From Candidatus Poribacteria bacterium (GTDB taxonomy: Bacteria > Poribacteria > WGA-4E > WGA-3G), in contig CAXXUA010000003.1 of assembly GCA_963663765.2 (NCBI GenBank), positions 201,534 through 265,533 of the forward strand: a stretch of 64,000 nt of DNA, written 5' to 3'. A program made the position numbers and the translations under genes. This document shows, in pieces, positions 7,748 to 58,800 of the stretch. Below the pieces are notes generated by a model that saw only the letters and a program-made list of their open reading frames with translations, was not told where the DNA came from and did not search any database. The number at the start of each line of letters is the position of its first letter. Position 1 is the first letter of the stretch.

Positions 7748-8749
7748 ATGGCGAAACAGAAATTAACATTTGGATTTATCGGGTGTGGCGGAAATTCACG
7801 TGGACACGGACGTAGTGTCTCTGGTGTTGACAATGTAGAGATCGTGGCACTTGCAGACCCAAGCGAAAACGCGCTCAAAGCATTCAAGGAAACCGTCGGT
7901 TTAGACAATTCCATACCTACATACTCTGACCACGTTGAAATGTTAACCGAAGCAAAACCCGATGCTGTTGTCATCAGTTCACCGCACGGATTGCATTTCG
8001 ATCATATCATGTCTGCACTTGATGCTGGCTGCCATGTGCATACCGAGAAACCGATGGTCTGCACGGTTGATCACGCAAAACAGGTAATAGCAAAAGTAGA
8101 AGAAACAGGTTTACATCTCATGATTGGCTACCAACGCCATTTGAGTCCTACCTATCAATACTGTCGTAATGTCGTCCAAAGTGGAGAACTTGGAAAAGTC
8201 AACTTTGTTGCTGCACATCAATCACAGAATTGGTATCGGAATCAGCAAGGTAAGTGGCGACAAGATCCATTCCTCGGCGGGGGTGGACAATTAAACGACT
8301 CTGGCAGCCATCTTATTGACATCCTCTTATGGGTGTTAGAAGCAAGTCCAGACACTGTCTATGCGATGATAGACAACTTAGACATTGAGGTAGATGTACT
8401 CACTGCAATGTCCATCAAATTTGACACGGGTGCATTGTGCAATATCAGTATCGTTGGACACGCACACGGTGGGGTTCAAGAAGACTTTTCCATCTGGATG
8501 GAGGACGGTGCACTATTTCTTCGCGCTGGAAAGTTGTACCGACAAGGAAAGGTTGGCAGACCGGAACAGGTTGATGACGTTGAACTACCCAAAGGCGGAA
8601 ACAAAGACGTTGCTTTTATTGAACTCATAAGGGGTGAACGAACAGAGAATCCAATCGGTGTTGAAAACGGACTACGTGTCATTCAGTTAACAGAAGCTGC
8701 TTGGCAATCCGCTGACCTTGGAAGTCCTGTTAAAGTTGATCTCAGTTGA
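7748..8749 (+). CDS. Gfo/Idh/MocA family NAD(P)-dependent oxidoreductase
   Basis: N-terminal Rossmann motif FGFIGCGGNSRGH, the EKP motif (HVHTEKPM), and ~330 aa length typical of the family. Confidence 0.85.
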   Translation: MAKQKLTFGFIGCGGNSRGHGRSVSGVDNVEIVALADPSENALKAFKETVGLDNSIPTYSDHVEMLTEAKPDAVVISSPHGLHFDHIMSALDAGCHVHTEKPMVCTVDHAKQVIAKVEETGLHLMIGYQRHLSPTYQYCRNVVQSGELGKVNFVAAHQSQNWYRNQQGKWRQDPFLGGGGQLNDSGSHLIDILLWVLEASPDTVYAMIDNLDIEVDVLTAMSIKFDTGALCNISIVGHAHGGVQEDFSIWMEDGALFLRAGKLYRQGKVGRPEQVDDVELPKGGNKDVAFIELIRGERTENPIGVENGLRVIQLTEAAWQSADLGSPVKVDLS

Positions 8750-12507: not shown

Positions 12508-15500
12508 ATGAATTCTGTACAAACGAAATTAGATAAAGCTCGCGCTGAACTGCTTGACTTAACCTTGCGTAACCCATTGATCAACTATAAACTTCTCAAG
12601 GCGCGAGGCATTGAGATTGTTGATGAATCTCCATCAGATATTTATCAGATACTTGTTCAAAATAAGAAAACTATGTCTTTCCTGCCAAGAGATGAAGATG
12701 ATAGTTCTTTTCTGTTTGAAGATGAAGCGGAACATGATCCTGAGCGGTATACCGATACCAAACTTCAGACAAACCATTTCTCCCCTGAACTTCAAAAGCG
12801 TTTACGGAATACCGAGTATACGGAGCGAACGGCAATTGAAGAACAGGGAGTAACTACCCTCTATCTTGCGCTTGGTATGCTTGAATGGTATGAATCTGAA
12901 TCCAGTGAGATTTTACGTAGTGCTCCACTAATTATGATACCTGTGGTACTCAACCGAACGAGTGTACGTGCTAATTTTCGAGTTCAGTACACAGACGAAG
13001 ACATTGGAACGAATCTATCACTTCAAGAAAAACTGAAAGCTGAGTTCAGTATTCAATTACCAGATCTTCCCGATGTGGATGACCTTAATCAGTCCACCAT
13101 TCTAAGATACTTTGAAGAAGTAAGTGAGGTAATTGTTAACCAAAAGCAATGGTCAGTAAATGATTTAAAAATTGCACTCGGTTTTTTCTCATTTGCCAAG
13201 TTTCTGATGTACTGCGATTTAGACGTTAACAATTGGCCCGATAATACTCTCTCCAAACACCCAATATTAGATTCAGTGCTCGTAAACGGATTTCAAGAAC
13301 CAGACTCATCCATTGAGGATAGTGAACCCAACCTTGACCTACACCTGACTCCCGAAAATACGCATCACGTAGTTAATGCAGACAGTTCACAAGCATTGGC
13401 TATCCATGATGTAAGTGAAGGACGAAATCTCGTTATTCAAGGACCGCCCGGTACAGGTAAATCACAAACTATTACTAATTTGATTGCTGCATCTATAATG
13501 GAAGGGAAACGTGTGCTTTTTGTTGCTGAGAAGATGGCAGCTTTAGAAGTAGTCAAGCGGAATTTGGACAAAATTGGACTTGGCAATGCTTGTTTAGAAC
13601 TACATAGTCATAAGATGAACAAAAAAGCCGTTGTTGATGAACTAAGACGTATTCTTGATACCAGTGAACCAAAAATAACAGACCTAAAACAAAAACTCGA
13701 GAATCTTCTTGATGATCGCAACCGTTTGAATAGATACTGTGAAGCAGTCAACACCCCAATTGGCGAGAGTGGTATCACACCTTATCAGGCGTATGGAGAA
13801 CTTTTAGCCACACAACGCCTCCTCTCAGGAAGGGAACTGCCGACTTTAGCATCAAAAGATTTTCAACATTCAACATCTGAATTTGAAAAAGGATTGGCAC
13901 TTACTGAAGTATGCCAAACACTCCTTAAGCGGATGGGTATACCCAAAAAACATCCGTTTTGGGGAAGTCGTTGTAAGGTCTTTCTTCCTGCTGATAGAGT
14001 ATCACTTAAACAAGCATCTGCGGAAGCACGAGAAAGAGTTACCGAAGTCAAGAATTCATCTGAACAACTTGCACAGCACCTCAAACTTGTGCCACCGGAT
14101 ACTTGTGATGAGGTTGAAAATCTCATCCGCGCGGCGCGTCATGTTATAGATGCACCAGACTTATCAGGTGTTGCTGTGCAGTCAACCGAATGGGAAACGC
14201 ATAGTAGTGATTTTGAAGTAGGCTTTAAGGCAGGAGAAAAGTTAGACGAACTCCATAAAATACATGATGATATGCTGATACGTGAAGCATGGGGACAAAA
14301 TGTTTTAGAGATGCGGCAAAAGCTTGCTGCTCATGGAGATAAGTGGTGGCGTATACTCTCGGGAAACTATCGACAGGCACTTAATGAACTCAAAGGTTTA
14401 TGCTCACAACCACAATTACTACCAAAAACACATCATTCCCGACTCCGTATCGTTGATGCAATTCTTGAAGTGCAAAGTGAATCGCCTCAACTTGAGCAGA
14501 TACAAGAGATCGGTCAAGAATTATTTGGTTCACACTGGCAAGGGCAATCCTCGAATTGGGATCAACTACGTGAGATCATCAAATATATGTCTGCAACGCA
14601 CCAATCGGTAGCAAACAAAGAATTACCTGAAGCAGTAGTTACATATCTTGCGTCAAATCCGAATTTGGAAGAACTTAAGGAATCACTTGCAACCGTTGAA
14701 AAACTTTTTAGCAACTATCCACATCTTCTTCAATCGGTGATTGATAAAATCCAACTTGATGAAAAAGTGCGTTTTGGGTGTGATGATGGATTAAAACAAC
14801 TTCCATTTACTGAACAGATAAAAATCTTTAGATGTTGGGAAACTAAACCGGGCTGTCTCCAAGATATGGTTTCGTATAATCACCATGTTGAAGCGTTAAC
14901 GGATAACGGTTTCATTGAAATTGTAAAGGTTGCAAATGAATGGTCAGAAGCGGGAGAATATCTATCAGATTTACTCAAACAGACGTGGCACAACGTAAAA
15001 ATTGAGACAGTAATGACAGAACGACCAATTCTTGCGGGTTTTAGTAGTGAGACCCATCAGCATATTTTAGAAAGGTTCAAAGAGTTAGATCGCATCTCAC
15101 TTGACTACAATAAGGTAAAAGTAGCATACCAACATTGGAAACATTTGCCACAGTATGAAGCGTCAAGTGGACAATTAGGATTACTCAGGCGTGAATTTCA
15201 AAAAAAGCGACGACATCTCCCAATTCGTCAACTTATGACTAAAGCAGGAAATGCAATACAAGCAATTAAGCCTGTATTTATGATGAGTCCGCTCTCCGTA
15301 GCAACATTTATACCACCGAAAAGTGTTGACTTCGACTTAGTGGTTTTTGACGAAGCCAGCCAAGTAAAACCTGTTGATGCTTTCGGATCAATTGTTCGAG
15401 GTAAACAAACAGTAGTAGTTGGTGATACTCAACAACTACCACCTACCTCTTTCTTTGATAAACACATAGCTGAAGATGATGATGACACGGAAGAAAACGT

Positions 15501-17247
15501 AACAGCCGATACAGAGAGTATTCTTGGCTTGTTTAGTGCTCAGACCTCGCCAGAACGGATGTTACGATGGCATTACCGTAGCAGACATCCTTCGTTGATT
15601 GCAGTATCAAACTTTTGCTTTTACGATAATAAACTTATAATCTTTCCAAGTCCTGATGCCGCAAGAGAAAAAGTCGGATTGGTGTATCATTACCTACCTG
15701 ATACTGCTTATGACCGTGGAGGGAGTAGAAGCAACTTGAAAGAGGCAAAAATAGTTGCAAAAAAAGTCATGGAACACGCACGCTTACGACCCCATTTGAC
15801 ACTTGGTGTCGCGACTTTTAGTACAGCACAAATGCAAGCAATTCAAGATCAGCTTGAACTACTGCGCAGAGAAGATCTATCATGTGAGGAAACATTCTTC
15901 AATGCTCATCCTGAAGAACCATTTTTTGTTAAAAATTTAGAAAACGTTCAAGGGGATGAACGTGATATTATTTTTATTAGCATTGGATACGGGCGAGATG
16001 CTAATGGAAAACTTACGATGAACTTCGGACCTCTCGGTAGAGATGGTGGAGAAAGACGATTGAACGTTTTGATTACGCGAGCACGGCAGCGTTGTGAAGT
16101 GTTTACTAATCTTACTGCTGATGATATTGACCTAAGTCGTACCAATGCCCGCGGTGTTGCAGTCTTAAAACGTTATCTGAAATATGCGCAGACAGACGAA
16201 ATTGACATCCCAGAACTGATCGGCAAACTACCAGACTCTCCGTTTGAGGTAGAGGTTGCAGATGCATTGCGGGGATGTGGCTATGAAATTGATCATCAGA
16301 TTGGTTCTGCTGGTTATTTCATCGACCTTGCGGTTAAGGATCCTGAACGCCCAGGACGTTACTTATTAGGGATTGAGTGTGACGGAGCAACCTATCACAG
16401 TGCTCAATCTGCTCGCGATAGAGATCGAATTAGGCAGGAAGTACTTGAAGGATTGGGTTGGCGTATCCATCGTATTTGGAGTACCGATTGGTTTAGGTTT
16501 CCAGACCGTGAACTCAAAAAAGCAGCTGAAGCGATTGAAGCAGCTAAGGCACACATACCCTTCTCTATTGGTAAAACTCCAGAAGTTAATAATCATGATT
16601 CCAATGAAGATAAGGAAGAATCAGAAACAGAGGTTGAGGCAATTGATGATCCAACCCCAGAACCGAAACCCAATTCCCAAACAAAAAAGTATCAACTTGC
16701 AGAACTATCTATTTCTACCAATGGGCTTGATTTACATGCAGTTCCGTCACGCCTGATAGCAAACTGGATTCAGCAAGTTGTTGAAATTGAGAGTCCAGTA
16801 CACCTTAACGAAGTAGCAAAACGCATCACAAGTGCTGCCGGACTGAAGAAGGTTGGCAATCGCATCCAAAAAGCGGTTGAAAATGCTGCGAGGACAGCAA
16901 CTCGTTCTGAAGGTATTCAGATCAAAGAGACATCTCTATATGAGACATTTCTCTATTGGACTGGACAAAAAGAGATCACTGTGCGAGATCGTAGTGAACT
17001 TCCAAATACTTCACGCAAGTTTAAACTTATTGCACCTGAAGAAATACAAGAGGCAATCAAGTTGTGTGTATCGGAATCTTGCGGCATTGAACAAGACGAT
17101 TTACCTCACGCAACTTGTAGGTTATTTGGTTTTAAAAAGGTTAATTGGAACATGCAAGACGAAATTGAAGGCATAATTTATAAAATGATTGAAAGCGGTG
17201 AGTTAACGGATAAAGCTGGCTCGTTGGTACTTACTACAGTAAAATAG
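12508..17247 (+). CDS. DUF4011 / SF1 (Upf1-like) helicase / Vsr-like (DUF559) endonuclease / DUF3320 fusion protein
   Basis: N-terminal KARAELLDLTLRNPLINYK (DUF4011-type). Walker A GPPGTGKS at 13441..13464, Walker B VVFDEASQV, helicase motifs QGDERDIIFIS and RRLNVLITRARQRCEVF. Nuclease-like YFIDLAV...LLGIECDGATYHSAQSARDRDRIRQEVLEGLGWRIHRIWSTDWF. DUF3320-like tail. Confidence 0.8.
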   Translation: MNSVQTKLDKARAELLDLTLRNPLINYKLLKARGIEIVDESPSDIYQILVQNKKTMSFLPRDEDDSSFLFEDEAEHDPERYTDTKLQTNHFSPELQKRLRNTEYTERTAIEEQGVTTLYLALGMLEWYESESSEILRSAPLIMIPVVLNRTSVRANFRVQYTDEDIGTNLSLQEKLKAEFSIQLPDLPDVDDLNQSTILRYFEEVSEVIVNQKQWSVNDLKIALGFFSFAKFLMYCDLDVNNWPDNTLSKHPILDSVLVNGFQEPDSSIEDSEPNLDLHLTPENTHHVVNADSSQALAIHDVSEGRNLVIQGPPGTGKSQTITNLIAASIMEGKRVLFVAEKMAALEVVKRNLDKIGLGNACLELHSHKMNKKAVVDELRRILDTSEPKITDLKQKLENLLDDRNRLNRYCEAVNTPIGESGITPYQAYGELLATQRLLSGRELPTLASKDFQHSTSEFEKGLALTEVCQTLLKRMGIPKKHPFWGSRCKVFLPADRVSLKQASAEARERVTEVKNSSEQLAQHLKLVPPDTCDEVENLIRAARHVIDAPDLSGVAVQSTEWETHSSDFEVGFKAGEKLDELHKIHDDMLIREAWGQNVLEMRQKLAAHGDKWWRILSGNYRQALNELKGLCSQPQLLPKTHHSRLRIVDAILEVQSESPQLEQIQEIGQELFGSHWQGQSSNWDQLREIIKYMSATHQSVANKELPEAVVTYLASNPNLEELKESLATVEKLFSNYPHLLQSVIDKIQLDEKVRFGCDDGLKQLPFTEQIKIFRCWETKPGCLQDMVSYNHHVEALTDNGFIEIVKVANEWSEAGEYLSDLLKQTWHNVKIETVMTERPILAGFSSETHQHILERFKELDRISLDYNKVKVAYQHWKHLPQYEASSGQLGLLRREFQKKRRHLPIRQLMTKAGNAIQAIKPVFMMSPLSVATFIPPKSVDFDLVVFDEASQVKPVDAFGSIVRGKQTVVVGDTQQLPPTSFFDKHIAEDDDDTEENVTADTESILGLFSAQTSPERMLRWHYRSRHPSLIAVSNFCFYDNKLIIFPSPDAAREKVGLVYHYLPDTAYDRGGSRSNLKEAKIVAKKVMEHARLRPHLTLGVATFSTAQMQAIQDQLELLRREDLSCEETFFNAHPEEPFFVKNLENVQGDERDIIFISIGYGRDANGKLTMNFGPLGRDGGERRLNVLITRARQRCEVFTNLTADDIDLSRTNARGVAVLKRYLKYAQTDEIDIPELIGKLPDSPFEVEVADALRGCGYEIDHQIGSAGYFIDLAVKDPERPGRYLLGIECDGATYHSAQSARDRDRIRQEVLEGLGWRIHRIWSTDWFRFPDRELKKAAEAIEAAKAHIPFSIGKTPEVNNHDSNEDKEESETEVEAIDDPTPEPKPNSQTKKYQLAELSISTNGLDLHAVPSRLIANWIQQVVEIESPVHLNEVAKRITSAAGLKKVGNRIQKAVENAARTATRSEGIQIKETSLYETFLYWTGQKEITVRDRSELPNTSRKFKLIAPEEIQEAIKLCVSESCGIEQDDLPHATCRLFGFKKVNWNMQDEIEGIIYKMIESGELTDKAGSLVLTTVK

Positions 17248-21719: not shown

Positions 21720-21758
21720 AATAGTTTATATGTGCATTACACAAAATAAATATTTAAT

Positions 21759-21788
21759 TTGAAAATATAATTGGAAATATGGTATATT
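21759..21788 (+). promoter_or_regulatory. Sigma-70-like promoter candidate TTGAAA-18 nt-TATATT upstream of the NTPase/HEPN operon
   Basis: Hexamers read at 21759..21764 and 21783..21788, inside a very AT-rich 124-bp spacer and 55 nt upstream of ATG 21844. Confidence 0.3.
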
Positions 21789-21843
21789 TACGGTAAGTCT
21801 TACTTTTCGTACTAAACTTTAAAGTGTCAAGAATAGAATAGTT

Positions 21844-24800
21844 ATGCGTATACAATTAATTCAACAAAAGGTTCCAATTGGAAGCCAAGTCACATTTACA
21901 ATGAAAACTGGCGAGAAAATGTCAGGTTCGTTAACGGAACTTGGTAAAGATTATGTTGCATTAGATGTCCTAAATGGCCAAGCAATTTTGGATGTTAAAG
22001 AGATAGAGGGTATTCATCTAGGCATTTATGTTGATGAATCAGATAGTTCAGTTTCTTCTGTAATTTCACTCACAACATCTGAGGATCCTGAAGATATTCC
22101 GTTACCAACTGAGGCTAATCCGAAACTTGGTGATAACCAAATTCTGTCAACACCTGATGGAATCGAACCAGTCGTTGAACAGGAATCTCCCGATGTTGCT
22201 GCTGTATCAACTGAAGTTTTTAATTCTTCAGAGGACTCTTCGATCTCTGTTGAAGAACCTGAAAATTCAGATTCTATTGGTATACAAACTGACTTTGTTG
22301 ATCCTGAAGAACAACTTGATGAAATTGAAAAACGGTTTAAGAACGAAATTGAATCTGCTAATATTGAATTGCAACCTCCAGATTTTACTTTTCCAGCAGA
22401 TGAATTGAAAGGTTGGCAAAATACAAGTATTGCTGGCAAATGGTTACAAATCAAGAATACGTTTAAGAACGCTGAAAGAATCAATGAATTAAGTACCAAA
22501 TTTGGCAGAATCCAACCACTTCTTAGTGAACTCACCTCTTTAGTTAGACGTTTTCCGAATTCTCCATCACTTAAACGTGTTACTGCATATTTTAACGCAG
22601 TATCAGATGATTGGCAAGAGGCAATTCAAATATATAAAGAAGTGGCGATTACTTCAAAAGATTTCATTGACTGGTTTAATGTAGCGGTATCAGCGTTGAA
22701 TTTGAATGAAGAAGAGTTCGCTTGTTATAGTTTAGAGAGATTCTTCAATGGTGTTTCTGTAATTGATAAGCCGAATGCATGGTATATTTATGTCAATCTC
22801 GTAGAGAAATTCAACAATCTTTCTGCATTCCGTGATCTGTGTAAAATAGACGAAAACGATGTTGCTGAAAATGAAATTGAGATTTTATTGGACACGGCTA
22901 TATATCTCTTTAAGAGGAAGGTTACCACAGAATTAGCAATAGAAATTGTACAAAAACGAATCAAAGGTGAACCCGCTGTATCTTTGTTAAAAGAAGTCTC
23001 TGCAAAACTTGGTGGTCAGTCCGTTGAATCTTTCCGTCAATTCTTGGAAGAATTCATGAACGAGAGGATTGCTTCAGAAGAAAAAGACAACTCTATACAT
23101 CTGGGATATTCTGAACCCTTTGGAAATACTAAAGCACCTACTCGCGATGTAACACTACAAAAACCTTATTCACGACCAACAGTTAAACTTACAGGGGAAG
23201 AACTTTATAGAAAAGCACAGAGAGCCGATAAAATAGACAAAAACCTTGCGAAAGCAGAAAAACTTTTCCGAGAATGTATTCGTCAAAATATTCGGTATGA
23301 CAGTGCAATTAAGGATTTAGCGATGGTGCTCGTGCGATTAGATCGTTCGTTGGAAGCCGTGGAACTTCTTGAAAAATATCGGCCAGATGTAGAAGATAAA
23401 CAGTCTTTAGATAATACTCTCATAATGGTATATCCAACTGCGGATCAGTATGAGAAAGCAATTGATCTTCTTAACAATTCTCTTAAACTAACTTCAGAGA
23501 GAGAAAAAAGGGCGCATATACACTCGCAAATATCCAGTAATTACATTAAATTAGGAAATTATTCAAATGCAGAAAAACAATTCCGAGAGGTGCTAAAGTT
23601 ACGGCCTAACAATATCACCGTGCAACGGAACCTTGCACTTTGTCTCTCAAAACAAGACCGTTATACAGAAGCAGAAGAAATCTTAAACCGAATTCAAAAT
23701 ATCTCTCCTAATGCTAAAACTGCTGAATTATTGGAAGCAATTGAAAAGGCAAAAGCAACTGGAGAATTTATTCTTGATGATGACAGTTTTATTCCGACAC
23801 CTTCAGATTTTTCTGGTGAATTAAGCGAATTTGCACATTTCTTTCTGAAACGTTGTGAGTTTGAAGGTCTGGAATCCAACATAATTGCCCAAAGAGTGCA
23901 AGATGGAAAATATACGGGGTCGGAAAAAGACGTAAAACGCGATATTGATAGACTTAGAGTAGTCTCCAGCAAACTGGGTCCTAGTAGTCCACGAGAACGT
24001 AGTAACTATAATCTATCTGCAGCCAGAATCTATTTTGATATAAGAGATAATAGGGATTCTTTTTATCAAGACCTTTGCCGTAGTTTTGCTTCAAGAGGCG
24101 ATGCTGCAGTGATTGAAAATAGGGATTTAGATGCTGCGAGGGGGTGGTATTGTGAAGCACTGACCGTTTACGATGGAGCCAGAATTCATCATGGAAATGA
24201 TGAAATAGGTTCTCTTGTAAAAGATGCAGATGGCTCACTTGTCAGGTATCTCTATTCAATATTGGGGGCTGAACGTATACCACGACCACCTAAGATTCCA
24301 TCTGTCAGTACAGCGGTATCAGATGTTATTTGTACTGAGAGTGAAAAAGTTTTCGATGCAATAGTTTATTTAGTTTCACACAGTGGATATGCTTCTGAAA
24401 AAATTTTACGTTGTCTTTACGAAAACACATCCTTACGAAGTATAGCTCTAAAATATTTAGAAAAAAAAGTGTTAGATCATCATCTTCCTGTTAAAGGTCA
24501 GAGTGATTTCATTCAATTGTGGAACGATTTACGACACAATCAATTTGGCAAAGCACACAGTATTTCAAACGGTTTAAGGGTTTTACAGACTTTTGAAATC
24601 TCGGTAGCTTGGTTGGAAGATAACATTAAACACATAGAAAATATTCGCACTAACCTTTTCTTTGAATTAGACAAACAGAGAATTGCAGAATTACGGAGAA
24701 TATTTTATACTGCATTAGAACTTTGCCAACAGAAAGTGTTTGGAGAACAGGAGTATCGTTGTAAGTTACTCGATCGTTTCTGTGAAGATCTACTCGGACA

Positions 24801-26478
24801 AATTGAAATGAATCCAACAAAGTTTTCAGTAGAAGATGTTTATCCACTTATTGATGTTATTCACCAGAAAGTTAAAGAACATCTAGAAGGACTCTACGAA
24901 ACTTTGAAACCTCAATTGACATTAAGGTTAGCAGAAGGAAAGGAATCTTGTGTGCCAGTTGATAGGAGAATTGAGGTGCAAATTGTTGTGGAGAATGAAG
25001 AAGGACGAATGCCTGCTGATGCATTAAAATTAGTAGCTCAGGCGGATGAATCATTTTTTGAAGTAACAGTGCCAGATGTTGAATTAGCAGAATCATTGCG
25101 CGGAGGTAAAGACGCTCAGACAATTCTAAAGGTTCCTTTGCGTTTAACAGATGCAGCTTTGCAATCAGAAGCATTCTCTCTACCTATTTACGCTGAGTAC
25201 GGTATCCGTGGAGGAAAACGAGATAAAACTCCAGTTCAAAATCTCTCTGTCAGACTTAATTCAGAAGATGCGTTTGAGAAAATTGCAAACCCTTATGCGC
25301 GTTTTGCTGAAGGAGGCGTTGTTGGGGATGCGGAGATGTTCTTTGGACGTGATGAGTTAATTCAAAATATTTCAAAGTCCATTAAAGAATCTCATTTTCA
25401 AAGTAAGTCAGTTGTTGTATTTGGACAAAAACGATCTGGAAAATCCTCAGTTTTGTATCACCTAAAGAAATCACTTCAAGAAGATAAAAATTTGCTTATT
25501 CTTGATTTAGAAAACATTGCTGCAATTCTGGGAGAGAATTCTAATGTCTCACTCTTAACCCTGATTTTCAAGAACATTTTATCAGAATTGCAAGATGCTA
25601 TCGAAGATCACATAGATAAAGGTTTTACACCTTTAGAAATTGCTATTCCTTCTGATATGGACTTCTATTCACATCCTAACCCTCAGCAGTGTTTTGGAAG
25701 TATATTTAGGAGTTTCAGACGTGAGATTTCTAAACAGGAAGATTGGCGTGATGTCCGGGTTGTCCTACTGATTGATGAATTTCAGTATATTTATTCTCGA
25801 ATTGTTGATGGTAAGATTCCCGAATCGTTCATGCAAAGTTGGAAGGCTTTTTTGCAAGCAAACTATTTCCATACAGTTTTAGTAGGTCAGGATGTAATGC
25901 CAAAGTTTAAAGCACGTTTTCCTAACGAGTTTGGTACAACTCAAGATGAGCGGGTTACTTATCTGAAACCAGACGATGCACGAAGACTTATTGACGAACC
26001 CATACGCATTGGTGGCAGACAGGGTGACAGTCGCTATCGTGAACAAGCAATTGAACGGATTTTGGATCTCACTGCTGGCAGCCCGTTCTACATTCAAATT
26101 ATTTGCAACCGTCTTGTTGAATACATGAACGTTAAACACGCTGGACTTGTAACAGAGGCAGACGTTGACCAGGTTAAGAATGAATTGATACGCGATGTAA
26201 ATGCGTTAGGTTTAGACAAATTTGATAATCTCATCAATTCAGGAGATACCTCACCAGATGCTATAACAGATGAAGATGTCATAAAAGTCCTTAAGATAAT
26301 TGCTGACAATAGTAGTAAAACAGATCCTTGTCCTCGTGATAAAATTGTTTGCCAAACAGGTTCACCAATTGATACTATTCTGGATGATCTTGAGAAGCGA
26401 GATGTTGTTAAACGCCGCGATCAATCTTATCAAATTCAGGTGGGACTTTTCAGAGAGTGGCTGATTGAGAACGGTTAA
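21844..26478 (+). CDS. 1544-aa multidomain protein: Sm-like N-terminal barrel, acidic linker, TPR repeats, unassigned middle region, P-loop NTPase (Arch_ATPase/STAND-like), winged-helix tail
   Basis: Sm1-like pattern GSQVTFTMKTGEKMSGSLTELGKDYVALDV. D/E/S-rich low-complexity stretch. TPR-like AEKLFRECIRQ...NAEKQFREVLKLRPNN...YTEAEEIL. NPYARF..FFGRDE..GQKRSGKSS (25423..25449) and LLIDEF (25765..25782). Confidence 0.7.
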   Translation: MRIQLIQQKVPIGSQVTFTMKTGEKMSGSLTELGKDYVALDVLNGQAILDVKEIEGIHLGIYVDESDSSVSSVISLTTSEDPEDIPLPTEANPKLGDNQILSTPDGIEPVVEQESPDVAAVSTEVFNSSEDSSISVEEPENSDSIGIQTDFVDPEEQLDEIEKRFKNEIESANIELQPPDFTFPADELKGWQNTSIAGKWLQIKNTFKNAERINELSTKFGRIQPLLSELTSLVRRFPNSPSLKRVTAYFNAVSDDWQEAIQIYKEVAITSKDFIDWFNVAVSALNLNEEEFACYSLERFFNGVSVIDKPNAWYIYVNLVEKFNNLSAFRDLCKIDENDVAENEIEILLDTAIYLFKRKVTTELAIEIVQKRIKGEPAVSLLKEVSAKLGGQSVESFRQFLEEFMNERIASEEKDNSIHLGYSEPFGNTKAPTRDVTLQKPYSRPTVKLTGEELYRKAQRADKIDKNLAKAEKLFRECIRQNIRYDSAIKDLAMVLVRLDRSLEAVELLEKYRPDVEDKQSLDNTLIMVYPTADQYEKAIDLLNNSLKLTSEREKRAHIHSQISSNYIKLGNYSNAEKQFREVLKLRPNNITVQRNLALCLSKQDRYTEAEEILNRIQNISPNAKTAELLEAIEKAKATGEFILDDDSFIPTPSDFSGELSEFAHFFLKRCEFEGLESNIIAQRVQDGKYTGSEKDVKRDIDRLRVVSSKLGPSSPRERSNYNLSAARIYFDIRDNRDSFYQDLCRSFASRGDAAVIENRDLDAARGWYCEALTVYDGARIHHGNDEIGSLVKDADGSLVRYLYSILGAERIPRPPKIPSVSTAVSDVICTESEKVFDAIVYLVSHSGYASEKILRCLYENTSLRSIALKYLEKKVLDHHLPVKGQSDFIQLWNDLRHNQFGKAHSISNGLRVLQTFEISVAWLEDNIKHIENIRTNLFFELDKQRIAELRRIFYTALELCQQKVFGEQEYRCKLLDRFCEDLLGQIEMNPTKFSVEDVYPLIDVIHQKVKEHLEGLYETLKPQLTLRLAEGKESCVPVDRRIEVQIVVENEEGRMPADALKLVAQADESFFEVTVPDVELAESLRGGKDAQTILKVPLRLTDAALQSEAFSLPIYAEYGIRGGKRDKTPVQNLSVRLNSEDAFEKIANPYARFAEGGVVGDAEMFFGRDELIQNISKSIKESHFQSKSVVVFGQKRSGKSSVLYHLKKSLQEDKNLLILDLENIAAILGENSNVSLLTLIFKNILSELQDAIEDHIDKGFTPLEIAIPSDMDFYSHPNPQQCFGSIFRSFRREISKQEDWRDVRVVLLIDEFQYIYSRIVDGKIPESFMQSWKAFLQANYFHTVLVGQDVMPKFKARFPNEFGTTQDERVTYLKPDDARRLIDEPIRIGGRQGDSRYREQAIERILDLTAGSPFYIQIICNRLVEYMNVKHAGLVTEADVDQVKNELIRDVNALGLDKFDNLINSGDTSPDAITDEDVIKVLKIIADNSSKTDPCPRDKIVCQTGSPIDTILDDLEKRDVVKRRDQSYQIQVGLFREWLIENG

Positions 26479-26488
26479 TGGAGAAGAT

Positions 26489-27994
26489 ATGAATTTTGAA
26501 AATCCTTTTGTAAATTATGGCAAAATTGTTCGTGGTGAACGTTTCATTGGACGTCATAAAATTCATAGTGTGATTGAAAACCGAATTATTTATCCTGTTA
26601 ACCCTGGAAATTTAGCCATCATTGGTGTGCATCGCATTGGCAAAAGTAGTCTTGCTTACAAAACAATCATTGAACAAAAAGAGAAACTAATTGCTAAGGG
26701 AATCCTGCCTATTTGGATTGGACTATCTTCCTACGATCAGTCATCAGAGTTTTTCAGTTCGCTGGTAGTTGAATGTGTCAATGAAATGGAAGATTTAGAT
26801 TGGCTAACTGAGAAAATTCAACGTTTAGCTGATCGTGCATTAGAAGATGGTGCTACGTGGGACCGAACAAGACGTTTTTTTAAAGAAGTGCAAAAAGCTG
26901 GATATGGTACACTTTTCATTCTGGATGAATTTGATCATGCTCGTTATATCTTCAAGGGTGAGACAGCATTCCAACGTTTGCGAGAATTAGCCGATTATCC
27001 AGATTACCGTTTGTCGCTTGTGCTCACGTCCCGTCGTAGCATTAAGGATATTGAAACCGCGGCTGGTTCTTCATCTCCGTTTCATAACATTTTCCAAGTA
27101 CAACGTTTAGCCATGTTCAATGATGATGACTTAGCAATCTACTTTTCCCGATTTTCAGATATGGGAATATCTATATCTGATGAACAAAGACAACGGGTGT
27201 TGTTCTATTGTGGAGTTCACCCCTACTTGTTGGAAATGTTAGGTTGGGAAATCGTTGAGAGGTATCGTCAAAATCAAGAACAAGATGTTGATATCGATTT
27301 AGCAGCAGATACTATCCTACAGTCTATCTTTGGTCATTATGACGATATGATTCGGTTGCTGCGGGAGGAAGAAACCTTAAATAAACTTCTCCAGATTTTA
27401 TTTGGTCCTGCCATTGATGTTACACCAACAGATGTAACAGAACTTGAAAACTACGGTTTGATTAAGTCAGTTAATGAATGTCCTTATATTGCATACTCAG
27501 AACACTTTCACGATTACCTAAAACTACATGAAAGTGCAACAGAATTTGTTGATGATTTACATTCTATCTGGAGCAAAACTGAGAATGTGCTCCGCGAGGT
27601 AATCACAACAACCATGTTTGGTGTATTTGGAGATGATTGGATTGAAGAATTCGAGAAAACACGCCCTAATCTGAAACAGATTTTCGATAAATGTCGTCAA
27701 GCACAACAGAAGGAAGAAAAGTCATTTCCAGATCAAGCATCACAAAATCTAATTGATTATACCTATCCAGCAGATCTGTTTAGGATAATTCTTGGTAAAG
27801 GAATATGGGATCAGCATTTTCAAACAATCTTTGGTCAATATACGGGTTACTGGGACGAACGGGGTAAGTTTCTTGCGAAATGTAGAACTCCTTTGGATCA
27901 CAACCGGGATAAAATACTTAAACCTCACCAACGAAAAATATTTGAAGCGTATTGTGATGAAATTCTGGGAGTGCTGTCTAATAGCATCCAGTGA
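26489..27994 (+). CDS. P-loop NTPase (Arch_ATPase/STAND-like) fused to a C-terminal Swt1-like HEPN domain
   Basis: ATG 26489, with GGAG upstream, lies 10 nt after the upstream stop. NPFVNY..FIGRH..GVHRIGKSS (26624..26650) and FILDEFDH (26915..26938). The C-terminus ENVLREVI..FGDDWIEEF...LIDYTYPADLFRIILGKGIWDQHF...CRTPLDHNR carries Rx4H at 27884..27901. Confidence 0.7.
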   Translation: MNFENPFVNYGKIVRGERFIGRHKIHSVIENRIIYPVNPGNLAIIGVHRIGKSSLAYKTIIEQKEKLIAKGILPIWIGLSSYDQSSEFFSSLVVECVNEMEDLDWLTEKIQRLADRALEDGATWDRTRRFFKEVQKAGYGTLFILDEFDHARYIFKGETAFQRLRELADYPDYRLSLVLTSRRSIKDIETAAGSSSPFHNIFQVQRLAMFNDDDLAIYFSRFSDMGISISDEQRQRVLFYCGVHPYLLEMLGWEIVERYRQNQEQDVDIDLAADTILQSIFGHYDDMIRLLREEETLNKLLQILFGPAIDVTPTDVTELENYGLIKSVNECPYIAYSEHFHDYLKLHESATEFVDDLHSIWSKTENVLREVITTTMFGVFGDDWIEEFEKTRPNLKQIFDKCRQAQQKEEKSFPDQASQNLIDYTYPADLFRIILGKGIWDQHFQTIFGQYTGYWDERGKFLAKCRTPLDHNRDKILKPHQRKIFEAYCDEILGVLSNSIQ

Positions 27995-29580: not shown

Positions 29581-30180
29581 TTAATTTCCTTGTACTGCTT
29601 TGAAAACAGAATTCATTGCACCAAACAAGATAGGTAAATTTGCTAAAGTAAAGTTGGTTCGATTTCGTGTAAAGACATCACCAACAAGATTTCCAAATTG
29701 CCACATAATTCCATCGGTGACAATGCCATGCACAGGAAAATTTGTATTGTCATTTATTTTCTGTGCTGCGACTAACTCTGCCAAACACTGTCCCCATCCA
29801 AGTTCAAAGTCGTTCTTTTTCGCTTCAACCATCATTATCAATGGTGTTCCGACAACAGTGATACCCAATTCAGACTTTGTGGCAATAAGATAATCTGGTG
29901 TTCCATTCAAAGTTTCATCATAAGTGATGGATTTCTTTACCCAAAGTCCGTAGTTTTCTGCATAATCTTTGTAGATCTCTCTTAAAATAGGAAATATGAC
30001 CACTTCACATCTTGATCCTTCTGATGTAAAAAAATCAATGTGTTGTTGACTAAATTCAAGTTCTTTCAAAAAATGTTCTGAAGGAACTTTCGCCTCAGCT
30101 TTGAAAAAATCATTGTACGTGTATTTGATATTGAACTTTTCCTGAACTTCAGAAATTGTCTTGAAATCACTAAATGCCAT
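29581..30180 (-). CDS. PD-(D/E)xK nuclease-fold protein (HsdR N-terminal-like), paralog A
   Basis: GTPDYLI...LIMMVEAKKNDFELGWGQCLAEL gives a D...ExK...Q motif series. The start ATG at 30180 has GGAGG 8 nt upstream (track start 30195). Confidence 0.6.
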   Translation of the reverse strand: MAFSDFKTISEVQEKFNIKYTYNDFFKAEAKVPSEHFLKELEFSQQHIDFFTSEGSRCEVVIFPILREIYKDYAENYGLWVKKSITYDETLNGTPDYLIATKSELGITVVGTPLIMMVEAKKNDFELGWGQCLAELVAAQKINDNTNFPVHGIVTDGIMWQFGNLVGDVFTRNRTNFTLANLPILFGAMNSVFKAVQGN

Positions 30181-30210
30181 GAGGACTACCTCCACACTTC
30201 CAATATGAAT

Positions 30211-30342: not shown

Positions 30343-32043
30343 TTAGTCGTTTTGGACTTAGAAACGGTGCGCGAGCACCTGACAGGTTATAGTGGGGTCT
30401 ATATGAGCATGATAGAGGTTTTAGTTGCTATTGAAGCATGCTTGGAATAGTTCGCATCATTATACGGATCAGATCACCACTATAATGTTGCGTATACACC
30501 TTTGTATGTAGCGGAGTCATGCTCTGACATACTCCCCAAGCTAAAGCATGGGGGTTCTTAGTTCTTATATTGGAAACGGTTTGAGTTGTTTCCAAACGAC
30601 TTTTCCTGCTTCCGTGTCTCGTGCCCTTTCCTGAACAGCGTTGGGTCTTATTTGCACTCCACAGGCGTGACTTTCGGTGTGTCCCACCGTAGTTGGTTTC
30701 AAGTTTATTGCAGCATTGACATCTCTATCTATAGACATATCACATTGACTGCAGTGATACATTCTTTCTGAAAGTGTTAGGTCTTTCTTTTTGTGTCCAC
30801 AACCGGAACAGGTTTTACTACTTGCAAAGAACATATCTGCTTCTTTGACAGGTATACCGTGCACTTCTGCTTTTGTCTTGAGTTTTAGCAGGAAACTGCC
30901 TAATGCTGTATCTGACAATGCTTTTGCGAGGTTTCTGTTCTTCAGCATATTAGTAACCTTGAGTGTCTCAATACCGATCGCAGATGCGAGGTTGACAATC
31001 TCTGTAGTTGCTTTATGATGTGCATCGTTTCGGATACAAGCGATACGATAGTAGATACGTTCTAACTTGTGTTTTTGTTTGAACCAGTTGTTAGACTTGA
31101 AAACTTTTCTACTTAATCTACGTTGTTCTCTTGCTAACTTCTTTTCATATCGTTTCAGGGGTCTTGGATTATCATATTTCGTGCCATCACTCAATGTGGC
31201 AAGTGTGTTTATGCCTACATCTATACCAATCACAGGGTGCGTTGAGTTATCAACTGCTTCGGTGTCCTCTGTTTCTATGGTGATAGATACAAACCAACGA
31301 TGTGCTGTCCTTGAGATCGTCACTTTCATAATCTTACCCACAAAACGCAATGATTCAAACATGCTAATCCAACCAATCTTAGGAAGTTTGATACGCTTAC
31401 CTTCAACTTCTACAGATTGATTATTTGTGGTGAATGCGTCCTTTTTGCCACGCTTCTTGAACTTCGGAAATCTCGCACGCTTACCAACCCAACTCGCAAG
31501 CGCAGCAGACAAGTTACCAAATATGCTTTTATTGGCTACAACCTGATCCATATCTTTAGTCCAAGCATGTGCTTTCTTAGCAATATTAAATCGAGTGTTT
31601 AACTTCGCAGCGGATAAGAACTCATCATTTGCCAATGCAGACTTGAAATCTGCTAATGCATGATTATATGCAAATCTCGCATAGCCACACTGTTGTGCAA
31701 ACCATTTTCGTTGATTGTTATTTGGATTCAATGCAATCTTATGTGTTTTTAGCATGATCATATTCCAGTCCTATGAAGACGTCAGTTCCCTCTACTAAAG
31801 GTGTGTAGGTGTTAGTAGCACCTACACTGAACTGGTATAATGAGTATCTCATGTTTTAAACCAAAAATCAAGTTTTTTCTTGACACAAGCACTTAGCACG
31901 ACTACATCCCACTACCTAAAGGTAGGGGTTTTGTCGTGATTCTTGATAAATATAACTATAGGAAAGACCACCAAGTCTTTTGGATGTCTATGTTTGAGGC
32001 TGTGGGATGCGAGACTGCATTATCCTAAGTCCAAAACGACTAA
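30343..32043 (-). mobile_element. tnpB-only IS200/IS605-family (IS1341-like) element; extent provisional, bracketed by a 19-bp perfect inverted repeat
   Basis: TTAGTCGTTTTGGACTTAG at 30343..30361 and its reverse complement at 32025..32043 bracket tnpB. No Y1 (HUH) tnpA is nearby. A stem-loop GTGTAGGTG-TTAGTAG-CACCTACAC (31803..31827) lies upstream of tnpB. Confidence 0.45.
30565..31761 (-). CDS. tnpB: RNA-guided endonuclease TnpB (IS605 OrfB family)
   Basis: N-terminal HTH-like LKTHKIALNPNNNQ, RuvC-I VIGIDVGIN, RuvC-II IGIETL, zinc finger CSGCGH...CSQCD, RuvC-III DRDVNAAINL, and the family-typical tail ..SHACG...EAG. Confidence 0.9.
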   Translation of the reverse strand: MIMLKTHKIALNPNNNQRKWFAQQCGYARFAYNHALADFKSALANDEFLSAAKLNTRFNIAKKAHAWTKDMDQVVANKSIFGNLSAALASWVGKRARFPKFKKRGKKDAFTTNNQSVEVEGKRIKLPKIGWISMFESLRFVGKIMKVTISRTAHRWFVSITIETEDTEAVDNSTHPVIGIDVGINTLATLSDGTKYDNPRPLKRYEKKLAREQRRLSRKVFKSNNWFKQKHKLERIYYRIACIRNDAHHKATTEIVNLASAIGIETLKVTNMLKNRNLAKALSDTALGSFLLKLKTKAEVHGIPVKEADMFFASSKTCSGCGHKKKDLTLSERMYHCSQCDMSIDRDVNAAINLKPTTVGHTESHACGVQIRPNAVQERARDTEAGKVVWKQLKPFPI

Positions 32044-55848: not shown

Positions 55849-58800
55849 TTATTCCGTTTTAGGTAAGGTTGGGAGTGTGAGACGTGGACGGTCACCGAAA
55901 TCGGGGAGTTCGGGTGGGTTCTCTTCCATCTCTTGCAGGAGTATCTCTATTGCCTTATCAAGTTGTGGGTCACCTTCAGCGATATAATCTTGTGGACGAT
56001 AATCCACTTCAATGTCTGGGTCGGTGCCGTAGTTCTCAACGCTCCAACCGACATCAACGAACCAGAAAGAATACTCAGGTTGTGTTGTCCGTCCTCCATC
56101 AACAAATCCTTGATGTGGTGAGATACCGATAACACCTCCCCACGTGCGTTTGCCGATAAGTTGCCCTAATCCCATCAGTTTGAAGCAGTGTGAAAAGATG
56201 TCCCCATCGGAACCAGCGTTTTCGTTTGTGACAGCGATCATCGGACCTAACACGGAAGCAGTGGGATATGGGTGCGGTGTACCCCAACGTGGAATATCAT
56301 ATCCGATACGTCGGCGAGATAACTTCTCTAAAATTAGTTGTGACACATTGCCACCGCCGTTGTAGCGTACATCAACGAGTAAACCGGGATAACTCACTTC
56401 AGCAAGATAGCCGCGATGAAACTCAGCATAACCACGACTTCCCATATCGGGAATATGGACGTATCCGACCTTACCATCTGTCTTTTCATGAACGTATTTC
56501 CGATTTTGCGCGACCCATTCGCGATAACGTAATTCGCCTTCGCCACCAAGTACCTTGATCGTAACAACACGTTTCTCATCATCACTTTTATTCTTGAATG
56601 TGGTTTGCACCTCTTGTCCACCAAGACTTATTAATAACTCACCAGGTGAAACATTTTCGCTAAGCGGTTGTCCACCGATAGAAAGGAGGATATCCCCTTC
56701 TTGGATGTTGATACCGGGAGCATTGAGTGGTGAGGTTCTTCTATCATTCCATGTGTCGCCACGAACGATATGTGTGATGCGATAGCCGTTGTTGTCTGGG
56801 TCGTAAACAAAATCAGCACCGAGAAAACCTTGTCCGTAGTTAGGTGAACTGCGGTAATCTCCACCAGATTCATAAGCGTGTGAGGTGCCGAGTTCACCTT
56901 GCATTTCCCACATAAGGTCAGAAAATTCGGCACGGGTGGCAATTCTTTCCAGTTGTGGCAGATACCGTTGATACACGTTTTCCCAATCAACATCGGACAT
57001 ATCCTCAGTCCAGAAATAATCGCGCTGCAGTCGCCATGCTTCTCGATACATCTGTTTCCATTCAGCTGTGGGTATCACAGAGGGTCTGGCGCGATTGATT
57101 TCTATCCAACCGTTATGTCTGGGGTTGCCACCTTTATTATCAGGTTTTTGGTCCCCCTCTGCTTTTCTACCTGCTTTTATGATACGCAACCGATTTCCTG
57201 TGCGATATAAAAGGCTTTTGTAATCTCGCGAAAGTTGGAAGGAGTCAATATCTGGAACGAGTACATCTTTTTTCTGCTCTTTAAAATCGTAAGCGTGGAG
57301 TTTACCTTTCGCACTTGAACCATCACCTTCAGGGGTATTTTGCGCGTGCTGAACAGGAAAAGAAGTAAAAATCGCTTTGCCTTCAATACCAGCAATCTGT
57401 CTGTAACGTCCGTGTGAATAGGGAAAAGCAACAACGCGCTGTTCAATACCGTCTAACTCAATTTTGATAGGTTTTTTCTTTTTCTCATCCTTTTGCTCAT
57501 TAGAATCACCATCTTTTTCCTCGGAATTTTCTTCAGTATCCTTGTCGCCATTTTCCTTTTTATCTTTTTCCTTTTCATCTTCAGGTGGCGGTGTGGTAGG
57601 AAGAAACGGGTTCGGTAGTTCTTTCTGCAAAGTTACCAATAATGGTCGTGTGGCAATAGGAAAACTAAGTTCAAACTGCAACGCATCACCGACAGGGTCA
57701 AATTCACGATGAGAAAGAAAATAGAGATACTTTCCGTCTGGATCCCAAGCGGGAGCATAATCACTGAATTCAGTTTTCGTGATATACGTAGTTTCTCCTG
57801 TTTCAATGTTGCACAGTTTGATTGACGATGTGGTCTCAGTAGCGGGAAAACTGTATACGATCCATTTTCCATCAGGTGACCATTTTGCACCTTGAATTCG
57901 ATTATATAGACTTTTGTCAAGCACACGCATTTCCAGCTTTTCAAGTTCTATGTGCAGCAGTTCAAAACGTTGGTTGACGATGAGGAGTTGGTCTTTCAGG
58001 TCATCCCCTTTCGGGCAGACAGCAAGTTGACGCACATGTCCTATGTCCAGTTCATCAAGACGGCGTACTTCTTCACTCCCATCGCATGTGTGAATTTCAA
58101 GAGCTTCTTCACCATCAGCATCTGAAAGCGTCAAGATACGTTTGCCATCATTTAACCATCGTGGCATACGATACCGGGTGCCGTTGCGTTCTCCGTGCTG
58201 GAGGACAGCACCATCCCAGTTTGCCATCGTAAAAAGTTTGCCACGGGAAGTAAACGTTATAGATCGACCGTCTGCGGACGGTGCGTAATCTTGAAGGTAC
58301 TGTGAGGCGTTGACGAATTTGCGTTGGCGTTGAATGCGCGGACTGCGGAATTCCACGTCAACTTGATGGTTTGTATCCTTTTCTATATCATAAATCCATA
58401 AATCGGCACCTGCATGATAGACAATGTGGTCACCATCAGTTTGTGCTGATCGTGCATAATAGGTTTCCTGATGTGTGTGCCGTTGTATGTCTTCACCAGA
58501 GGTTTGGCAGGAATAGATATTTCCAACGCCTTCATGGTCAGAGATAAAGTAGATACGATCCCCAATCCATAAGGGAGTCGTGAAATTGCTTTCAACAGGT
58601 GCAAAGGGTTCAAACTCCCCATTCCCATCAGTATCAATCCAGAGTTGTCCTGCCGTACCGCCACGATAGCGTTTCCATCGTGCGGGTTCACGAGTTAACC
58701 TTCCAAGAACAACGCCACCGTTTTCTCCAAATGCAATGTGGTTAGCAGGACCATAAGGAAGTCGTTTCGGTTCACCACCATCAGGAGAGATGCTCCATAA

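Follow-up and report, generated by a model that had tools for sequence, protein, structure and literature searches.

A paired NTPase-HEPN gene cassette in Candidatus Poribacteria as a probable split, NLR-like conflict system

A 2013 survey (Anantharaman et al. 2013, Biol Direct 8:15; PMC3710099) lists in its Table 1 a Swt1-like HEPN domain together with 'STAND-ATPase, TPR, S1', gives Npun_F6454, MED222_16016 and Desac_1927 as examples, and remarks on HEPN-STAND proteins with cold-shock-like domains. A 2026 census of prokaryotic STANDs distinguishes 589 clades, 198 of which are defence-associated (Lee et al.; PMC13581612). Here we describe a two-gene cassette, A-B, in a 64,000-nucleotide stretch of a Candidatus Poribacteria genome (assembly GCA_963663765.2, contig CAXXUA010000003.1, positions 201,534 to 265,533 of the forward strand; this whole stretch is called the window). 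Gene A (21844..26478, + strand) is an open reading frame (ORF) of 1544 aa with a proposed role as sensor/scaffold subunit, and gene B (26489..27994, + strand) is an ORF of 501 aa with an ATG start, proposed as the effector subunit. Judged by its listed domains alone, the 2013 entry is likely the same family as A-B, and literature searches on PDC-M34 of PADLOC and on the gene names given as examples in 2013 yielded no additional information. On balance, A-B is probably a defence-type sensor/executor mechanism, a split-NLR-like mobile conflict cassette with anti-phage or abortive-infection function.

The two co-directional genes lie 10 nt apart, from the stop codon of A to the ATG of B, as a preliminary description of the locus had stated. 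An alternative TTG start for gene B exists at 26465; the ATG at 26489 is supported by the N-terminus MN..FENPF, which is conserved in B homologues. The arrangement is widespread. A scan covering a single genome of each species turned up 79 loci with a gene for a B relative, and an A-type nucleoside triphosphatase (NTPase) stands directly 5' of B in about 70 of them, distributed over more than ten phyla. These include Poribacteria, Latescibacterota, Chloroflexota, Cyanobacteria, Nitrospirota, Desulfobacterota and Bacteroidota, and further lineages are Actinomycetota, Gammaproteobacteria (Thiomargarita/Beggiatoa), Betaproteobacteria (Burkholderiales), Bacillota and a Methanocalculus archaeon. 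In most loci B starts -4 to +19 nt from the stop of A, and the mid-region and TPR repeats of A were also seen in most of the roughly 70 A-B loci. A-B is a real two-gene unit with fixed gene order and near-zero spacing, and the synteny expected earlier thus holds well beyond the window. An exhaustive profile search with B gave 545 clusters (50% identity) at E<=1e-30 and 1415 clusters at E<=1e-10, most of them about 500 aa long with the NTPase-HEPN layout.

No third component is conserved, because the genes beyond the pair differ between loci. Co-directional ORFs of about 300 aa that follow B in L011, L017 and L028 were considered as a third gene and rejected as unrelated (PhyH, histone deacetylase, DUF4058), and the genes after B in L058 and L062 proved to be GT87 and purD. 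An apparent A-B fusion in Actinomadura (L073, an ORF of 1828 aa) is a high-GC open-frame artefact, with A stopping at 7974 and B lying in another frame.

Both proteins carry an NTPase of related sequence. In A, the NTPase with helical lid spans aa 1147-1450 (25282..26193, + strand) with the motifs NPY..FFGR, Walker A GQKRSGKSS (25423-25449) and Walker B LLIDEF (25765-25782). The corresponding part of B covers aa 1-349 (26489..27535, + strand) and consists of NTPase, helical domain and winged helix with the motifs NPF..FIGR, GVHRIGKSS (26624-26650), FILDEFD (FILDEFDH at 26915-26938) and TSRR; the coordinates reported for these motifs agree with their translation. We found 112 homologues of gene A, most of them alignable across most or all of their length, and 639 of gene B, and aligned 22 and 23 of them, respectively. 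G1194, K1200, S1201, S1202, D1311 and E1312 of the A NTPase are invariant, as are G46, K52, S53, S54, D146, E147, D149, R182 and R183 of the B NTPase, of which R182 and R183 belong to TSRR, in our reading a sensor-I-like motif. A matches nSTAND1 (PF20703) at aa 1162-1404 with 33.7 bits against a cut-off of 27.1 (E 4e-8). B of the window matches AAA_22 at its cut-off, and its 23 homologues match AAA_16 (15), ATPase_2 (PF01637; 14), NACHT (seven, weakly) and nSTAND1 (one).

The paralogy of the two NTPases that had been proposed is supported by a profile-profile alignment (hhalign) of A 1147-1450 with B 3-278, with E 2.3e-5 over 262 columns, and both have the same best match in the PDB, 2qen. The AlphaFold2 model of A[640-1544], built on 23 homologues, has a mean pLDDT (predicted local distance difference test) of 87.9 and places the NTPase with its helical lid at aa 1169-1450, followed by a winged-helix-like tail at aa 1476-1543 (26269..26472, + strand; helices 837-850, 870-879 and 895-904 and a hairpin at 883-892 in fragment numbering). 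The models of A (aa 1169-1543) and B (aa 1-349) each show a module of NTPase core, helical domain and winged helix. Foldseek matches of A against the PDB are dominated by the NTPase, with 2qen first (E 1.4e-7), then Cdc6/ORC, NRC4 and Apaf-1, and after these TnsC and RuvB, while B matches 2qen (E 7e-7) and then Orc1/Cdc6; the alignments to 2qen, Cdc6, NRC4 and Apaf-1 span 380-440 columns. As the nearest structural matches are Cdc6/ORC-like, the NTPases are placed on the border of AAA+ and STAND.

The C-terminal part of B (aa 357-500; 27557..27988, + strand) is all-helical in the model and was identified as a Swt1-type HEPN domain through its homologues, 19 of 23 of which match HEPN_Swt1 (PF18731; best E 7e-11), while the match in B of the window has E 0.13 and 13 bits against a cut-off of 27.5. 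The predicted catalytic motif R466-TPLD-H471 (Rx4H; 27884..27901, + strand) has R466 and H471 invariant in the 23 homologues, and so are the ExxLR residues E365, L368 and R369, which bears out the Swt1-like C-terminus suggested before. The motifs are kept in the homologues of Streptomyces, most Bacteroidota, Burkholderiales and Thiomargarita. One B homologue, in a Phaeodactylibacter metagenome-assembled genome (L058, 9063-9455), has lost both the R and the H of the motif (AGAPLSQDRD), and its HEPN domain is presumably inactive or repurposed. A sequence search for a solved structure of this HEPN subfamily gave nothing significant, with the best match at E 0.096 (GrpB protein). Profile and structure searches together support the assignment of NTPase and HEPN folds to the pair.

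The domain order claimed for both proteins was confirmed by Pfam, profiles and AlphaFold2 models, and the alignment of A is conserved along its whole length. Aa 1-65 of A (21844..22038, + strand) have profile and weak Pfam matches to small beta-barrels. The profile of the first 62 residues finds the SH3-like domain at the C-terminus of BirA (E 3.6e-4), then LSm/Sm proteins (E 0.03-0.4), and four to seven of 17 members have weak matches to SM-ATX, RimP-SH3, LSM or Hfq_1, which weakly suggests a small SH3/Sm-like barrel. A D/E/S-rich linker follows at aa 66-159 (22039..22320, + strand), gap-rich in the alignment and variable in length among homologues, and then a helical region with conserved columns at aa 160-450 (22321..23193, + strand). 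A cold-shock domain (CSD) is inserted at the C-terminal end of this region in Chloroflexota, cyanobacterial and some Bacteroidota homologues (PF00313, aa ~360-455 in P0212, P0224 and L058) and is absent from A of the window. The TPR repeats at aa 450-640 (23191..23763, + strand) match TPR_19 (E 5e-14), TPR_12 and TPR_2, with the Pfam match spanning aa 453-638, and PDB sequence matches of this part are designed and consensus TPR structures.

Some 500 aa of A had been left unassigned, and in the AlphaFold2 model they form a helical array and a beta-sandwich. The former is a family-specific all-helical array at aa 662-1020 (23827..24903, + strand) with no Pfam match, and it is the most divergent structured part among the syntenic Poribacteria (49-55% identity). 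The beta-sandwich occupies aa 1024-1139 (24913..25260, + strand; model strands E386-E499 in fragment numbering). A profile search with the mid-region returned solely fragments or partial sequences with TPR and/or an nSTAND1-type NTPase, or with no domain call; these are consistent with A itself, and the search gave no sign of the mid-region in other contexts.

While the NTPase of B is retained, its C-terminal module is exchanged among variants, which carry a tandem HEPN dyad (P0259, P0279), HEPN plus CSD (CspC match, E 3e-7), a Ser/Thr protein kinase (PknB/StkP match, E 1e-23) or a PtuA-like ATPase. In P0375, a PtuA-like ABC ATPase of the Septu/retron effector family (E 2e-17) takes the place of HEPN in fusion with a B-type NTPase. 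A kinase-type B in L165 (3558-18061) is still preceded by a full-length A and followed by NYN, HD-CE, EAD7-kinase-trypsin and Trypco1 genes, which we take to be typical conflict-system components. On a Poribacteria chromosome (L047, 3216-11633) three genes were found, namely a full A of 1586 aa, a long B of 779 aa and a standalone A-type NTPase of 408 aa; this B comprises a B-type NTPase with a HEPN-homologous region (tblastn) and a C-terminal cold-shock domain (Pfam E 1e-10).

Depending on the lineage, the CSD is found either inside A or C-terminally in B. In a metagenomic locus (L167, 2265-5591), a single ORF of 1108 aa joins the A mid-region and NTPase to a B-type NTPase that carries a degenerate HEPN-like stretch; its neighbours are an A gene on one side and a further B gene on the other, and it may be either a natural fusion or an assembly artefact. 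The alternating position of the CSD and this ORF both tie A and B together. Short variants of A (503-536 aa) with B directly 3' occur in L011 (6403-7974), L017 (6369-7979) and L027 (6473-7981); those of L011 and L017 comprise only barrel, linker and NTPase/winged helix, and the barrel was not detected in L027.

At its insertion site the cassette behaves as an accessory element. Several Poribacteria share the order NUDIX, oxidoreductase, A, B, and in comparison with the window their oxidoreductases are 89-92% identical, A 56-61% and B 69-86%. A metagenome scan with the oxidoreductase found contigs whose flanks are just as similar but which lack the pair (L085, L086), and across these two and L006, L007, L013 and L020 the oxidoreductase is 90-94% identical. 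The site is empty in L085 (10250-10295), where a gene beginning ATGCCACAAAAAAC follows 20 bp after the oxidoreductase stop, and the gene with this beginning stands after B in L006, L007, L013 and L020, all of which have A-B. In L086 (11100-11537) the site is occupied by about 430 bp of inserted DNA that contain a small HicB-like antitoxin-type ORF. As the site is empty, HicB-filled or A-B-filled between like flanks, the 6.3-kb pair represents a clean insertion/deletion polymorphism, and judging from these contigs the intergenic site is an integration hotspot for accessory genes.

Identity to the window varies by domain. L009 is close in the NTPase (83%) and in B (85-86%) and distant in the mid-region (50%), L013 is close in the barrel (86%) and, by eye, near-identical in the spacer 5' of A and distant in the mid-region (51%) and HEPN (59%), and L001 is close in the mid-region (74%) and distant in the helical region (57%). 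The cassette is accessory, mosaic by domain and evolving faster than its flanks. The AT-richness noticed before was borne out by the composition, with GC 0.373 and GC at third codon positions (GC3) 0.258 in gene A and 0.379 and 0.293 in gene B, against 0.479 and 0.392 in the flanking oxidoreductase and 0.469 and 0.394 in the flanking sulfatase. Low GC3 together with presence/absence at a conserved site supports the horizontal acquisition that had been suggested. No terminal inverted or direct repeats were found around 21.6-28.15 kb, and transposon ends for the cassette were therefore rejected; a phage origin was rejected as well, with no relative found in IMG/VR.

A-B combines variable presence, low GC3, occurrence in more than ten phyla and exchanged output modules (HEPN, kinase, PtuA-like). 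From its domain logic and the workings of characterised STAND and HEPN systems we infer how it might act: what triggers it, how A and B would form a hetero-oligomer, which RNase activity and target would follow and what role this would have in defence. The N-terminal barrel, helical, TPR and helical/beta-sandwich regions of A would keep its STAND/Cdc6-like NTPase off until a trigger, possibly a foreign protein or RNA, binds. Nucleotide-dependent opening would then expose the A NTPase and allow association with the related NTPase of B. HEPN RNases need a dimeric arrangement, and oligomerisation would juxtapose the HEPN domains of B so that a composite Rx4H site could cleave RNA, leading to arrest of the cell or the invader, i.e. 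growth arrest or abortive infection. The recurrence of RNA-binding modules (barrel, CSD) suggests RNA as trigger or captured substrate. More tentatively, and as a possibility that we rate well below the general defence reading, A-B might be a prokaryotic 'paired NLR', in which sensor NTPase A nucleates a hetero-oligomer with executor B, the output is exchangeable and the RNA-binding barrels (Sm-like, CSD) help to recognise the trigger or to capture the substrate.

Several observations weigh against a defence-type sensor/executor. No relatives were found on IMG/VR viral contigs, and a literature search found no experimental work on any family member. The pair lies outside clear defence islands in most loci, and 129 neighbours in 34 diverse loci are, by plain count, mostly housekeeping genes, among which defence-like genes are scattered (mad3 three times, AriA twice, NERD+UvrD, CARF-RelE, AbiLi, methyltransferases). 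In structure, the proteins come closest to Cdc6/ORC-type AAA+ proteins and an archaeal Walker ATPase rather than to NLRs. Compared with canonical STAND and Avs proteins, the domain order is inverted: A ends at its winged helix (aa 1543 of 1544), with TPR and the other sensor-like regions N-terminal to the NTPase, and the effector is C-terminal on a second polypeptide, B. The B model, which shows NTPase, helical domain and winged helix followed by a C-terminal domain made up of helices, is of moderate confidence (pLDDT 71.5), and its P-loop region is modelled poorly. Finally, short A proteins (523-536 aa) lack the whole presumed sensor, so that this region is dispensable or these copies have decayed.

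The best-surviving alternative, still an unlikely one, is a cellular RNA-surveillance or stress machine in which cellular RNA bound by the Sm-like barrel (in relatives also by the CSD) is remodelled or licensed by the ATPases, and HEPN processes or degrades particular host transcripts under stress. The recurrence of SH3/Sm-like barrels and CSD in the family would fit such a machine, as would the predominance of housekeeping neighbours, the retention of the pair at the same locus in several Poribacteria, the lack of viral copies and the presence of HEPN domains in RNA processing too (PMC3710099). However, a housekeeping role is hard to reconcile with a pair that is present or absent at one site between near-identical flanks, patchy across phyla, low in GC3, domain-wise mosaic and diverging faster than its flanks. 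The replacement of HEPN by a kinase or PtuA-like ATPase in relatives also speaks against it, as does the location of the kinase variant among conflict-type genes.

Slightly less probable again is a toxin-antitoxin-like addiction module, in which the HEPN toxin B is restrained by A and the pair persists because loss of A is lethal. HEPN proteins are common toxins (PMC3710099), a HicB-like antitoxin gene occupies the same hotspot in L086, and the gene spacing implies tight translational coupling of A and B. However, a multidomain NTPase of 1544 aa is unlike any known antitoxin, B proteins with a kinase or PtuA-like ATPase instead of HEPN still keep A, and the L058 homologue has lost its HEPN catalytic residues; moreover, toxin-antitoxin function and abortive-infection defence can coexist. 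Although the Foldseek matches include TnsC, RuvB and ORC/Cdc6, the A-type NTPase of L047 matches TniB (E 0.0017), the cassette behaves as an insertion and a TnpB gene lies 2.5 kb downstream in the window, it is very improbable that the NTPases are TnsC/TniB- or Cdc6/ORC-like loaders for the cassette's own transposition or replication and that A-B belongs to Tn7-like/TniB-type elements, as no conserved transposase or integrase stands beside the pair in the loci examined, TnpB went undetected in the seven further loci with the window's flanking genes, terminal repeats are lacking at the cassette ends, the boundaries of occupied sites show no obvious duplication by eye, and neither a HEPN nor a kinase output serves transposition.

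The spacer 5' of gene A (21720..21843, + strand) is 124 bp long and AT-rich (GC 0.22), and the promoter-like pair TTGAAA-18-TATATT described for it is present at 21759-21788 (+ strand; hexamer pair 10/12, TG-extended -10). The region contains 16 promoter-like sites against 18.8 +/- 3.5 in shuffles, and as this count is not above the shuffled sequence the hexamers alone are not evidence and were dropped as such. The spacer is nearly identical 5' of gene A in L013 by visual comparison of the two sequences.

Upstream in the window, a 1579-aa superfamily 1 helicase-nuclease (12508..17247, + strand) is Hhe-like and gives a full-length match to the PADLOC candidate PDC-S37 (E = 0, 1980 bits); it ends 4.6 kb before gene A, and the region therefore holds more than one candidate defence gene. 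Downstream, a 204-aa PD-(D/E)xK nuclease of the CRISPR-associated 'PD_DExK' family (29581..30195, - strand; E 3e-43), conserved in L002, is adjoined by the TnpB/Cas12f-like gene (30565..31761, - strand; E 1e-65). The only tRNA of the window, a tRNA-Gly (56402..56484), is 28 kb from the cassette, and the window contains no Rfam matches and no second copy of A or B.

If the conflict-cassette reading is confirmed, a bacterial system would be shown to divide sensor and executor between two related NTPases, in the manner of animal and plant NLR pairs, and the paired-NLR version, if true, would make A-B a bacterial counterpart of NAIP-NLRC4 or plant sensor/helper pairs with inverted domain order. 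We know of no characterised bacterial system with separate but related sensor and executor NTPases. The cassette is also tractable, with two genes, clear predicted catalytic residues (K1200 in A; K52, R466 and H471 in B) and natural output variants. The family is not small; the phyla that carry it have large genomes or a multicellular or symbiotic way of life, the sponge-symbiont Poribacteria among them. It is likely to go unannotated, because neither PADLOC-DB v2 nor NCBIfam (release 20, June 2026) has a model for it: searches of both gave no full-length match to A or B and solely matches at the level of the HEPN domain (PDC-M34B) or the P-loop. The earlier view that no named system fits the pair thus stands for full-length models, while a matching architecture was already listed in the 2013 survey (PMC3710099).

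Compared with known systems, A-B has most in common with that 2013 entry, which shares a Swt1-type HEPN with active Rx4-6H, a STAND-type ATPase, TPR and an OB-fold/cold-shock-type RNA-binding module, and which was predicted there to be a conflict/defence RNase (PMC3710099). In contrast to the family described here, the entry is one table line, without the two-gene split, the second NTPase, the mid-region or the distribution. PDC-M34 of PADLOC shares the Swt1-type HEPN with protein B, and all 23 B homologues match PDC-M34B (best E 9e-13), though solely over the HEPN stretch. The match in B of the window is limited to aa 358-450 (profile positions 62-147 of 192) and leaves out the NTPase, A has no PDC-M34A match, and with only the HEPN part of PDC-M34B matched the pair falls outside PDC-M34. 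PABY2304 (2qen, a Pyrococcus abyssi Walker ATPase of ATPase_2, PF01637) and Orc1/Cdc6 have the NTPase core, helical lid and winged helix in common with A and B, but they have neither TPR nor HEPN, are not paired in this way and are only 12-16% identical. RNase L, Csm6/Csx1 and Cas13 resemble B in the Rx4-6H motif and in an activity expected to need two juxtaposed HEPN domains; they are regulated by 2-5A, cyclic oligoadenylate or CRISPR RNA, whereas the proposed regulator in A-B is NTPase oligomerisation.

Avs/AVAST systems (Gao et al. 2020, 2022; PMC13581612) are similar in their repeat-rich sensor, STAND-type NTPase switch and nucleic-acid-degrading effector activated by oligomerisation, and also in swapping effectors on a conserved NTPase and in horizontal spread. 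Avs are, however, single polypeptides ordered effector, NTPase and C-terminal sensor, whereas A-B has an N-terminal sensor-like part and carries its effector on a second NTPase protein; split over two genes and matched by no PADLOC Avs model, A and B are not Avs. Eukaryotic paired NLRs (NAIP-NLRC4; plant sensor NLR and NRC helper) likewise divide recognition and output between related NTPases, and Foldseek matches of A include the NRC4 resistosome, but the parallel is one of analogy, and no specific sequence relationship links them to A-B. The split into two NTPases, the sensor region peculiar to the family, the polymorphism at the hotspot and the swapping of effectors are in no earlier description that we found, while the domain combination as such was noted computationally in 2013. 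On its predicted domains, we assign A-B to the STAND/NLR-type conflict systems with a HEPN effector, from which it differs in layout.

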